Below are positions 23,801 to 29,344 of a DNA stretch of 64,000 bases, one piece after another. The stretch's first letter is position 1. Each line of letters starts with the position of its first letter. Made by a program: the position numbers. Location of the stretch: assembly GCF_013315695.1 (NCBI RefSeq), contig NZ_CP054353.1; one strand, 5' to 3'. The DNA is from Escherichia coli (lineage in GTDB: Bacteria; Pseudomonadota; Gammaproteobacteria; Enterobacterales; Enterobacteriaceae).

Positions 23801-26800
23801 CAAGTCCGATCCACAATTCATCGCCATGCGCGAATATGTTTTAAGCCGCGTATTTGAGCAACGGGAGGCGTTCTCATGAGTGTACTCATTAATGAAAAAC
23901 TGCATTCGCATCGGCTGAAATGGCGCTGGCCGCTCTCGCGTCAGGTGACCTTAAGCATTGGTACGTTAGCGGTTTTGCTCACTGTATGGTGGGCAGTCGC
24001 GGCGCTGCAACTGATTAGCCCGCTGTTTTTGCCGCCACCGCAACAGGTACTGGCAAAACTGCTCACCATTGCCGGACCGCAGGGATTTATGGACGCCACG
24101 CTGTGGCAGCATCTGGCAGCCAGCCTGACGCGCATTTTGCTGGCGCTACTCGCGGCGGTGTTGATCGGTATTCCGGTCGGGATCGCCATGGGGCTAAGCC
24201 CGACGGTGCGCGGTATTCTGGATCCGATAATCGAGCTTTATCGTCCGGTGCCGCCGCTGGCTTATTTGCCGCTGATGGTGATCTGGTTTGGTATTGGTGA
24301 AACCTCGAAGATCTTACTGATCTATTTAGCGATTTTTGCACCTGTGGCGATGTCGGCGCTGGCGGGGGTGAAAAGCGCGCAGCAGGTTCGCATTCGTGCC
24401 GCCCAGTCGCTGGGTGCCAGCCGTGCGCAGGTGCTGTGGTTTGTTATTTTGCCCGGTGCGCTGCCGGAAATTCTCACCGGATTACGCATTGGTCTGGGTG
24501 TGGGCTGGTCTACCCTGGTGGCGGCGGAGCTGATTGCCGCGACGCGCGGTTTGGGTTTTATGGTCCAGTCAGCGGGTGAATTTCTCGCGACTGACGTGGT
24601 GCTGGCGGGGATCGCGGTGATTGCGATTATCGCTTTTCTTTTAGAACTGGGTTTGCGCGCGTTACAGCGCCGCCTGACGCCCTGGCATGGAGAAGTACAA
24701 TGAGTGAACGTCTGAGCATTACCCCGCTGGGGCCGTATATTGGCGCACAAATTTCGGGTGCCGACCTGACGCGCCCGTTAAGCGATAATCAGTTTGAACA
24801 GCTTTACCATGCGGTGCTGCGCCATCAGGTGGTGTTTCTGCGCGATCAAGCTATTACGCCGCAGCAGCAACGCGCGCTGGCCCAGCGTTTTGGCGAACTG
24901 CATATTCACCCTGTTTACCCTCATGCCGAAGGGGTTGACGAGATCATCGTGCTGGATACTCATAACGATAATCCGCCGGATAACGACAACTGGCATACCG
25001 ATGTGACATTTATTGAAACGCCACCCGCAGGGGCGATTCTGGCGGCAAAAGAGTTACCCTCGACCGGCGGCGATACGCTCTGGACCAGCGGTATTGCGGC
25101 CTATGAGGCGCTCTCTGTTCCCTTCCGCCAACTGCTGAGCGGGCTGCGTGCGGAGCATGATTTCCGTAAATCGTTCCCGGAATACAAATACCGCAAAACC
25201 GAGGAGGAGCATCAACGCTGGCGCGAGGCGGTCGCGAAAAATCTGCCGTTGCTACATCCGGTGGTGCGAACGCATCCGGTGAGCGGTAAACAGGCGCTGT
25301 TTGTGAATGAAGGCTTTACTACGCGAATTGTTGATGTGAGCGAGAAAGAGAGCGAAGCCTTGTTAAGTTTTTTGTTTGCCCATATCACCAAACCGGAGTT
25401 TCAGGTGCGTTGGCGTTGGCAGCCAAATGATATTGCGATTTGGGATAACCGTGTGACTCAGCACTATGCCAATGCGGATTACCTGCCACAGCGGCGGATT
25501 ATGCATCGGGCGACGATCATTGGGGATAAACCGTTTTATCGGGCGGGGTAAGGGGGAAATGCCGGGTTGGATAACCCGGCATAATGATCATTAACGCAGA
25601 ATCTTCTTCTCAGCCAAATCCAGCGCAAAGTAGCTGAAAATCAGATCCGCACCCGCACGCTTAATCGAACCTAAGCTTTCGAGCACAACTTTCTCTTCAT
25701 CTATAGCACCCGCCAGCGCGGCGAACTTAATCATCGCGTACTCACCGCTCACCTGATACGCGCCAATCGGCAATTCAGTACGTTCACGCAGCTCACGCAC
25801 GATGTCGAGGTACGCTCCAGCAGGTTTAACCATCAGGCAGTCTGCGCCCTGGGCTTCATCCAGCAGTGATTCACGAATCGCCTCACGACGGTTCATTGGA
25901 TTCATCTGATAGCTTTTGCGGTCGCCTTTTAATGCGCTTCCCGCAGCTTCACGGAACGGGCCATAAAAGGAAGAGGCAAACTTGGTCGAATACGACATAA
26001 TCGCCGTATCTTTAAAGCCCGCAGCGTCCAGCGCCTGGCGAATCGCCTGTACCTGGCCGTCCATCGCGGCGGAAGGGGCGATGAAATCTGCGCCTGCAGC
26101 AGCTGCAACCACGGCTTGCTTGCCTAAATTTTCCAGAGTCGCGTCGTTGTCGACGCCATGCTCGCACAGCACACCGCAGTGACCGTGAGAAGTGTATTCA
26201 CAGAAACAAGTGTCTGACATGACGATCATTTCTGGCACAGTCTGCTTGCAGATGCGCGACATACGCGCCACCAGTCCATCTTCCCGCCAGGCGTCGCTGC
26301 CGGTTTCATCGGTATGGTGAGAGATGCCGAAAGTCATCACGGAACGAATACCGGCGTTGGCGATGCGTTCAATTTCGCGTGCCAGATGTTTCTCTGGAAT
26401 ACGCATCACGCCTGGCATGGCTTCAACGGCTTTGTAGTCGTCAATTTCTTCTTCAACAAAGATCGGCAACACCAGGTCGTTAAGGCTAAGTGTTGTCTCT
26501 TCAAACATAGCGCGCAGCGCAGGAGATTTGCGCAGGCGACGAGGGCGTTGGATTAAATCTGTCATGGTCTGCCTGATGTTTGTGGAATCGAGGGGCATAG
26601 TATACCTGAAGCAGGGTGGGGATGTTTTACGAAAGTTGTCGCGATGTTGACAAGAAGAGAATGGAAGAGAGGCCAGGACATCTTTGTAATAGAAATAGCA
26701 ATAATTTCATATTCACTGAAAATATTTTTAATTTTTATTTATAGTCATGGATTATTGTTTTTGGGGATTTGGTTTCGTTATCAAAAACGGAATGATTTAA

Positions 26801-29344
26801 AGTTCATTGGTTATTGATAGATTATTTGTCTGGTTTGTGTGTTTGATATTTTAAATGCATATGCTTTAAAAATGGAAATCCTGTTAACTTGTTGAAACAT
26901 TAAGCTTTTATCAATTTTTTCTTTGTGTGTTCCTCCGTGCTTTATATATGTCCGTAACCGGACTTCGGGGAAAGAATAATTGAACCATTCCTCAATAACG
27001 CCGCATAATCGTTAGCGCGAAACATAATATGTTTTCTATGCATTGATAATTGATGGATCAACTTATTACGTCCCTGAGGAGGGATGACAAATGCACTCCT
27101 GGAAAAAGAAACTTGTAGTATCACAATTAGCATTGGCTTGCACTCTGGCTATCACCTCTCAGGCTAATGCAACTACTTATGACACCTGGACTTATGTCGA
27201 TAACGCGGCTACTGGTCTTAACTGGACCAATATGGATAATCCGGGTACTGTAGATGGTAACTACGTGAATTATAGTGGCTTTGTCTACTATAACAACACC
27301 AATGGCGACTTCGATCAGTCTTTTAACGGTGATACTGTTAACGGCACGATTTCTACATACTATCTGAACCACGACTACACTGACGGTACAAATGGTAATG
27401 CTAACCAGCTTGATATTGCTAATTCAGTAATTCATGGCTCAATCACTTCCATGCTTCCTGGGGGTGATCTCTGGCATAATGGTGCTTATGATCAAAGCTA
27501 TGGCTACATTCAGGCTGGTGATACAGTTATTGATACAACGTGGTATGACGGTGATGTATTCACTCTGAATATTGCTAACTCCACCATTGATGATGACTAT
27601 GAAGCACTTTACTTCACTGATTACTACAAAGATGGCGATGTAACTAAATCAACGAATGGCACCTTTGACGTTAGCGAAGGCGTTGCTGTTAATCTTAATG
27701 TAGAAAGTAACATCAATATCTCCAATAACTCCCGCGTTGCAGGTATTGCGTTATCTCAAGGTAATACTTACAACAATACCTACACCACTGAATCCCATAC
27801 TTGGGATAACAATATTAATGTCTCTAACTCAACCGTAACTACCGGTTCAAATACCGTGTTGGAAAGTTCTGGTTATGGTCATTTCGGTAACTCTGGTGAG
27901 CCGAGTGATTATGCTGGCCCGGGTGACGTTGCATTGTCTTTCACTGATAGTACTTCAGACTATGCAATGAAGAACAATGTATATTTCAGCAATTCTACTC
28001 TGATGGGTGATGTTGCGTTTACCAGCACCTGGAATGCTAATTTTGATCCAAGTGGTCATGATTCTAACGGTGACGGCGTAAAAGATACCAATGCTGGTTG
28101 GGTTGATGATAGCCTGAACGTTGATGAGCTGAATATTACTCTTGATAATGGTAGCAAGTGGGTTGGTCAGGCTACATTCAATGCTGAAACCATTTCTCCA
28201 GACACAATGTATGATGTTGCAACTAACAGTTTGACCCCTGGTGGCACAGCTGAAGTTAATGGTTGGAATCGCATCATCGACAATAAAGTATTCCAGAGCG
28301 GTGTATTTAACGTAGCGTTGAATAACGGTTCTGAATGGGATACTACAGGTGATTCGCTTGTTGATACCCTGACCGTTAATAATGGTTCTCAAGTCAATGT
28401 TTCTGATTCTAGTTTAACTTCAGACACTATCGATTTAACTAACGGTTCTTCGCTGAACATTGGTGAAGATGGTTACGTTGATACCGATCATCTGACTATT
28501 AACTCCTACAGTACTGTTGCGTTGACCGAATCTACAGGTTGGGGTGCTGATTACAACCTGTACGCCAATACCATCACCGTAACTAACGGTGGTGTATTGG
28601 ATGTGAACGTTGATCAGTTCGATACTGAAGCTTTCCGTACTGACAAACTGGAACTGACCAGCGGCAACATTGCTGACAATAATGGTAATGTAGTATCCGG
28701 TGTATTCGATATCCACAGCAGCGATTATGTTCTGAACGCTGACTTGGTGAACGACCGTACCTGGGATACTTCCAAGTCTAACTACGGCTACGGTATTGTT
28801 GCTATGAACTCTGATGGTCATCTGACTATCAATGGTAACGGCGACATGAACAACGGCGACGAACTGGATAACAGCTCTGTAGACAACGTTGTTGCTGCAA
28901 CCGGTAACTATAAAGTTCGTATCGACAACGCAACTGGCGCTGGCGCAATCGCTGATTACAAAGATAAAGAAATTATCTACGTAAACGACGTCAACACCAA
29001 CGCGACCTTCTCTGCTGCTAACAAAGCTGACCTGGGTGCATACACCTATCAGGCTGAACAGCGCGGTAACACCGTTGTTCTGCAACAGATGGAGCTGACC
29101 GACTACGCTAACATGGCGCTGAGCATCCCGTCTGCGAACACCAATATCTGGAACCTGGAACAAGACACCGTTGGTACTCGTCTGACCAACTCTCGTCATG
29201 GCCTGGCTGATAACGGCGGCGCATGGGTAAGCTACTTCGGTGGTAACTTCAACGGCGACAACGGCACCATCAACTATGATCAGGATGTTAACGGCATCAT
29301 GGTCGGTGTTGATACCAAAATTGACGGTAACAACGCTAAGTGGA

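Follow-up and report, generated by a model that had tools for sequence, protein, structure and literature searches.

The adhesin gene upaC of Escherichia coli is reportedly under transcriptional repression by the global regulator H-NS (Allsopp 2012, Infect Immun 80:321). In the passage of PMC5012682 that cites Allsopp 2012, UpaC of uropathogenic E. coli (UPEC) CFT073 is named among the autotransporters with transcriptional repression by H-NS. UpaC is an alias of EhaB, which occurs in two main forms (PMC8281228); the positional ortholog in Salmonella is SeaB, earlier called yaiU, whose gene lies next to hemB with iprA downstream (PMC13248724). Binding of H-NS to the S. Typhimurium yaiU (=seaB) promoter was demonstrated by electrophoretic mobility shift assay, where it was specific, by isothermal titration calorimetry (Kd 0.29-0.46 uM) and by chromatin immunoprecipitation with quantitative PCR; cyclic di-GMP inhibits this binding, and according to the authors repression of yaiU by H-NS had been reported before (PMC10657408). 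Phenotypes of SeaB and EhaB appeared only upon over-expression, for which partial or full repression in vitro has been suggested (PMC13248724). Here we analyze the corresponding control region of E. coli, the hemB–yaiT intergenic region on contig NZ_CP054353.1, within a stretch of 64,000 nucleotides that we refer to as the window.

Composition and setting of the hemB–yaiT region

In this part of the window the genes run tauABCD, hemB on the minus strand, a gap of 525 bp, an intact autotransporter gene, iprA and ampH. Annotation was taken from RefSeq record NZ_OZ547117.1 (blood isolate AF3), which differs from the window at 8 of 64,000 positions, and from K-12. We consider it probable that the gap is the control region of an intact adhesin gene of the EhaB/UpaC type and that it is silenced by H-NS. 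Its composition, conserved anatomy and orthology are described below; binding and repression by H-NS are the results of others at orthologous loci, by analogy with which H-NS would also act on the present allele. The original prediction had placed the region at 26599-27090 (490 bp). Its right edge stands, whereas the left edge, chosen because a longer open reading frame (ORF) reaches an upstream ATG at 26598, has to be moved: hemB starts at 26565 in both RefSeq and K-12, and the intergenic region is therefore 26566-27090.

The AT-richness that had been noted in this DNA is confirmed by a GC content of 0.349 over the intergenic region, compared with 0.513 for the window (standard deviation 0.056 in 492-bp windows). 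Over 26599-27090 the value is 0.335, about 3 standard deviations under the mean and the third-lowest among the non-overlapping 492-bp stretches of the 64 kb, and in the core at 26680-26950 it falls to 0.255. TpA steps occur 9.6 times per 100 bp in the core, 7.8 times in the intergenic region and 4.6 times in the whole window, and the longest unbroken A/T run of the intergenic region is 25 bp. AT content is thus far above average over several hundred bp surrounding the promoter described below.

The downstream gene, announced as intact in the original prediction, indeed encodes a complete protein with the signal peptide, passenger and beta-barrel of an autotransporter (PF03797 Autotransporter beta-domain, E 1e-46; TIGR01414, E 2e-86; weak autochaperone match) and occupies the slot between hemB and iprA. 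An invariant signal peptide (27091-27171, the first 27 residues being identical in 6 aligned alleles) leads into a passenger that varies and is low in GC (0.42), and the C-terminal half is again invariant. By position the gene is orthologous to EhaB/UpaC/SeaB; CFT073 and ST131 carry it in the same slot, and RefSeq names the O157:H7 copy ehaB. Adhesin alleles are very divergent within E. coli (75-90% DNA identity).

Among the closest known loci is upaC (c0478) of CFT073. It shares the slot between hemB and iprA, and its intergenic region, also 525 bp, aligns end to end with no gaps and has a GC content of 0.33 versus 0.35 here. The two loci do not differ in promoter hexamers, Shine-Dalgarno hairpin or signal peptide, they agree in the arms of the palindrome, and their flanks share 95-96% identity, whereas the central 200-bp block is just 75.5% identical and the passenger allele is a different one (969 aa here versus 995 aa, with 68% identity at the passenger start). 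Salmonella yaiU/seaB has the same position by hemB and iprA, an AT-rich promoter fragment and an adhesin silent in culture, with a passenger only about 50% identical to that of EhaB (PMC13248724). At ehaB of O157:H7 (Wells et al. 2009) the locus and the conserved regulatory core are the same and the passenger is the most divergent, at 75% DNA identity. K-12 yaiT also shares locus and core; in a pairwise comparison of four loci its passenger was the closest (89.7%), but the gene is split by IS3. Just ahead of IS3, a small antisense gene, ytiB, lies within K-12 yaiT fragment 1 (4093-4149 of our K-12 locus, L002), and yaiT–ytiB figures among the convergent excludons listed in a paper from 2025. 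Silencing by H-NS, which the original prediction had drawn from composition, is thus supported by published binding or repression at orthologous loci in two species, and the expectation that the gene would be cryptic in the laboratory matches the over-expression phenotypes of SeaB and EhaB (PMC13248724).

A conserved regulatory core upstream of the adhesin gene

Conservation across genera was followed in a scan with one genome per species, which gave 56 loci from about 20 genera, Salmonella not being among them; element counts refer to 49 loci. The coordinates of all features are collected in Table 1. A consensus scan located a predicted sigma-70 promoter from which, judging by the position of the -10 hexamer, transcription would start near 27016. 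Across 23 species (24 aligned sequences) both hexamers are invariant and the spacer between them, within the 16-18 bp of a sigma-70 promoter, varies freely; exact TTGAAC-N18-CATAAT is found at 39 of the 49 loci.

Two 5-bp inverted half-sites lie at a fixed position upstream of the -35 hexamer. In the window alone this palindrome is not significant (1 match versus 1.86 expected, with no second site in the window). A relaxed form is present at 36 of the 49 loci, and wherever palindrome and promoter occur together the distance from its first base to the -35 hexamer is 30 nt without exception (34/34 loci). Regulators of the CRP/FNR family bind palindromes of the type 5-N4/6-5, and the sites from which they activate have their centre near -61.5. 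By its sequence and its class I position the palindrome is a candidate operator, at which a dimeric regulator could bind.

Downstream of the predicted start, a non-coding leader element reaches a conservation comparable to that of the hemB coding sequence (84-87% in the same cross-genus alignment), and its core ATTGATGGAYCAAC is present at 43 of the 49 loci. On folding, no stable structure of its own was predicted for the leader motif ATTGATGGAUCAAC, which could be a recognition site for a protein or an RNA. A GATC (Dam) site at 27056-27059 falls within the motif in Escherichia and Citrobacter and is lost in genera with GGACCAAC.

The translation start region TCCCTGAGGAGGGATGACAAATG is near-invariant across genera (99% over 27076-27095). 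The good Shine-Dalgarno sequence of the original prediction is present (GGAGGG at 27078-27083, separated by 7 nt from the ATG at 27091) but is probably masked by a stable predicted hairpin that pairs it (-10.9 kcal/mol, z score -3.3, 0 of 200 shuffles equally stable). Distant genera keep this hairpin at -7.1 to -9.7 kcal/mol and the stem is found at 45 of the 49 loci, whereas folding of the leader as a whole is unremarkable (z score -1.7). RNAalifold recovers the stem; since only one-sided, pairing-preserving changes occur (GU to AU, in 8 of 24 sequences) and no compensatory pairs, covariation is uninformative here. The hairpin may play a role in translation.

Table 1 Features of the hemB–yaiT–iprA locus (positions in the window)
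Feature	Position	Strand	Description
hemB (porphobilinogen synthase)	25591..26565	-	Divergent neighbour, 324 aa; RefSeq annotation and K-12
hemB–yaiT divergent intergenic region	26566..27090		525 bp, GC 0.349
hemB-proximal zone	26566..26740	-	Conserved in E. coli, mean pairwise divergence 0.058
Central hypervariable block	26741..26940		Most of the AT-richest core; diversity 0.18-0.30 and GC 0.24-0.34 per 50-bp bin
Palindrome	26950..26963		GTCCGTAACCGGAC (GTCCG-N4-CGGAC, 5-N4-5), centre at about -59.5 from the predicted transcription start
yaiT/ehaB promoter (predicted)	26980..27009	+	-35 TTGAAC 26980-26985, 18-bp spacer, -10 CATAAT 27004-27009; consensus scan
5' untranslated region (5'UTR) element	27040..27062	+	GCATTGATAATTGATGGATCAAC (core ATTGATGGAYCAAC, contains GGA); 83% cross-genus column conservation, non-coding
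Shine-Dalgarno-sequestering hairpin (predicted)	27069..27086	+	CGUCCCU / loop GAGG / AGGGAUG
Autotransporter adhesin (yaiT = ehaB = upaC allele)	27091..30000	+	Type Va, intact, 969 aa
Adhesin–iprA stem-loop	30040..30067	+	AATGCCCGTCA-AGGATT-TGACGGGCATT, 11-bp stem, within spacer 30001-30085
iprA (yaiV)	30086..30709	+	NCBIfam equivalog E 4e-138; Pfam HTH_46

IprA and its linkage to the adhesin gene

A homolog of iprA lies directly downstream of the adhesin gene at 47 of the 49 loci, including those without hemB. IprA combines a C-terminal winged helix (HTH_46, E 5e-31) with a weakly cyclic-nucleotide-monophosphate-like N-terminus. In its AlphaFold model (predicted local distance difference test, pLDDT, 86.7) the fold is predicted to be CRP/FNR-like, the best matches in the PDB being CRP, NtcA, GlxR, Clp and Vfr, over the full length and with probability 1.00. 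IprA is accordingly named here as a candidate binder of the palindrome; it is not known to have a mapped DNA target. The gene evolves fast, with 40-76% identity between genera compared with 90-96% for HemB, and is still tied to the adhesin gene throughout.

In the spacer between the two genes, the stem at 30040-30067 is kept across genera with compensatory changes in its arms, and a T-run follows it in many genera but not in E. coli, where the tail was too weak for the terminator scanner. A CsrA-type hairpin with GGA in the loop, considered at this place before iprA, was rejected, as the loop GGA is not conserved. Because of the compensatory stem, the unconserved loop GGA and the U-tail of other genera, we take the stem-loop to be probably the terminator of the adhesin gene, not a CsrA site. 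In K-12, genomic SELEX (systematic evolution of ligands by exponential enrichment) placed an H-NS site and a constitutive promoter within this adhesin–iprA spacer (PMC3946193); the main text of that paper on constitutive promoters makes no mention of the hemB–yaiT spacer.

These elements raise the question of whether a dedicated regulator acting at the palindrome is, together with the Shine-Dalgarno hairpin, the main switch, with the AT-rich block as a spacer or UP-like element and H-NS as incidental. Conservation across genera, confined to palindrome, promoter, 5'UTR motif and hairpin and not extending to the AT-rich block, speaks for such a switch, as do the fixed palindrome-promoter distance, the presence of iprA, with its CRP/FNR-like predicted fold, beside the adhesin gene and the induction of the Salmonella ortholog by anaerobic shock (PMC13248724); yet H-NS repression and binding have been shown experimentally at orthologous promoters, and upstream AT-richness is conserved in every genus despite the turnover of sequence, which argues that composition is selected. 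The part given to IprA is, moreover, one that we infer. We therefore regard a main switch of this kind as unlikely, although the two explanations are compatible, as in counter-silencing.

Silencing by H-NS with a dedicated counter-silencer is known for the E. coli ecp operon (EcpR, IHF, H-NS) and for vat. The hemB–yaiT locus resembles these systems in its AT-rich upstream DNA, its silent near-consensus promoter and a regulator site just upstream of the -35 hexamer; the analogy is functional only, and in contrast to those systems the regulator here is a candidate, IprA. A combined view, which we put forward tentatively and hold to be possible rather than likely, is that adhesin gene and iprA form an ancient module in which IprA on the palindrome would counter-silence H-NS and activate the promoter, while the Shine-Dalgarno hairpin and ATTGATGGAYCAAC would act as a second, post-transcriptional gate. 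The activating signal in such a module would come from the host, for example anaerobiosis or redox state.

For the preferred explanation, silencing by H-NS, the following sequence of events can be proposed. The block of about 270 bp with 25% GC, together with the passenger DNA at 42% GC, would provide a surface for H-NS polymerisation. H-NS would shut the near-consensus sigma-70 promoter, leaving the adhesin largely cryptic in laboratory culture. A dimeric regulator seated on the palindrome, for which IprA is the best candidate, would probably control release from silencing, and the conserved hairpin that buries the Shine-Dalgarno sequence would add translational restraint.

Composition and sequence turnover of the AT-rich block

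Several points weigh against silencing by H-NS. When the annotated intergenic regions of the window that measure 60 bp or more are ranked (35 regions, mean GC 0.445), the hemB–yaiT region is second in length and fifth lowest in GC, and since four others are equally or more AT-rich, composition alone is weak evidence; 'extremely AT-rich', as the original prediction had it, fits the core of about 270 bp but not the whole region, which is low in GC without being unique. The published high-affinity H-NS motif, which we take to be TCGATAAATT, is not enriched in the region, with 2 matches at 2 mismatches versus 1.22 expected from composition-matched shuffles (p = 0.35); a nucleation motif is, in general, helpful and not obligatory for silencing. 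Action of H-NS on this strain and allele is drawn from the orthologs, and the UpaC result is taken from the citing paper PMC5012682. Alleles of the central block are about 25% apart, so strains could differ in how strongly the gene is silenced. Finally, with the Shine-Dalgarno sequence probably occluded, silencing is likely not the sole layer of control.

The rank of the region among its neighbours and the absence of motif enrichment are what would be expected if it were an ordinary divergent intergenic region, with the usual AT bias of non-coding DNA, two promoters and no special silencing. This is, however, very improbable in view of a core that keeps 25% GC over 270 bp, about 3 standard deviations under the window mean, of a composition conserved across genera and of the direct action of H-NS published for orthologous promoters.

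Comparison across genera showed how far this composition extends. In 36 other species with hemB as the neighbour, the spacer measures 404-617 bp and has a GC content of 0.31-0.44, compared with 0.54-0.62 for hemB; at one further hemB-neighboured locus it measures 1,688 bp, with a GC content of 0.505. Where the neighbour is another gene (Buttiauxella, Atlantibacter, Rahnella), the upstream 500 bp are still at GC 0.28-0.37. Since low-GC upstream DNA persists across species, even next to a different neighbour, we take the AT-richness on this comparative evidence to be ancient and maintained and no scar of recent transfer. The order hemB–adhesin–iprA with AT-rich upstream DNA is found in Escherichia, Citrobacter, Kluyvera, Trabulsiella, Lelliottia, Yokenella, Phytobacter, Kosakonia and others. 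Citrobacter youngae (L047) and Citrobacter sp. MGH106 (L057) have in addition a second adhesin paralog of about 50% identity at a different locus, where conserved promoter, palindrome and hairpin are absent; in L047 an iprA-like gene (29% identity) stands upstream, not downstream, of the paralog.

At the level of sequence the AT-rich block is not conserved: per 20-bp bin only 23-52% of the aligned bases match the window, and the block is unalignable between genera. On the hemB side, phylogenetic footprinting gave 69-75% conservation over 26576-26635, dropping beyond. The zone 26566-26740 presumably houses the leader and promoter of hemB.

Within E. coli the intergenic region was found in 5,421 of 5,426 complete genomes, 5,033 records matching at only 80-90% identity. 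In all 13 alleles compared for divergence its length (522-528 bp) and GC content (0.328-0.350) are nearly constant. Mean pairwise divergence among these alleles is 0.015 for hemB (0.044 at its third codon positions), 0.247 (maximum 0.376) for the central block, 0.042 for the yaiT-proximal part (26941-27090, with a diversity of 0.000 in the bin 27041-27090), 0.002 for the signal peptide and 0.30 for the passenger start. At constant length and GC content, the central block thus shows about 5.6 times the divergence of hemB third codon positions, and we propose that it is a binding platform for H-NS in which composition is kept and sequence is not.

Co-inheritance of this block with the passenger allele was unsupported, as its divergence tracks that of hemB (rho 0.41, p = 2e-4) and not that of the passenger (rho 0.14). 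That hypervariability is unique to the hemB–yaiT region was also rejected. The spacer upstream of tauA (21523-22136) has diverged from CFT073 just as far as the centre of the hemB–yaiT region (0.745-0.85 identity per 200 bp), which points to fast turnover as a general property of long AT-rich spacers. This spacer, located between a truncated PIG-L deacetylase pseudogene and tauA, is the longest intergenic region of the window and among its most AT-rich (614 bp, GC 0.30).

The remaining explanations have a negligible probability. If the AT-rich DNA were the compositional scar of a recent horizontal acquisition of the adhesin gene, as the low GC of the passenger and the divergence of the E. coli alleles might indicate, neither the gene order and AT-rich upstream DNA common to many genera nor a central block whose divergence follows hemB would be expected, and no mobile-element genes flank the adhesin locus. 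A concealed small protein gene, small RNA or phase-variable switch is equally improbable: of the two mechanical ORFs, the one at 26644-26817 (+) falls in the hypervariable block, and the one at 26942-27133 (-), although it nearly coincides with the conserved zone, is interrupted by stop codons in ST131, CFT073, O157, PKF11, 6EVA and other alleles and genera, which led us to reject it as a small protein; no Rfam match at E <= 1 was obtained across 26300-27400, the region contains no tandem repeats and has no feature annotated in K-12 or RefSeq, and a search for an invertible switch of the fimS/UpaE type returned only short, imperfect and unconserved AT-rich inverted repeats, with no recombinase gene nearby.

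Other features of the window

Two IS1A copies are present (1-608 and 46768-48729). One lies directly next to a truncated lacA-like acetyltransferase gene (264-608), and the copy at 47265-47962 splits araJ into two pseudogene fragments. Between malZ and acpH, where K-12 presumably has no gene, positions 60764-62209 encode a hypothetical protein of 481 aa (GC about 0.30-0.36) that matched no Pfam family at E <= 0.01. The cluster mhpR–mhpABCDFE–mhpT (6329-15052) is absent from the corresponding region of CFT073, where this segment is uncovered.

Discussion

With H-NS binding or repression published for this adhesin locus in two species, the central claim is already known and not new. Our literature search returned no paper that pairs yaiT, by that name, with H-NS, and none of the papers searched contained the map of the control region given here, with promoter, palindrome, leader motif, Shine-Dalgarno hairpin and iprA linkage. 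Only the conserved regulatory core and the linkage of adhesin gene and iprA might be new.

The locus illustrates that a silenced surface-protein gene can be recognized from composition alone. Beyond this, the map offers a route to the signal that switches on EhaB/UpaC/SeaB, adhesins considered as vaccine antigens, and it may give IprA its first direct target.

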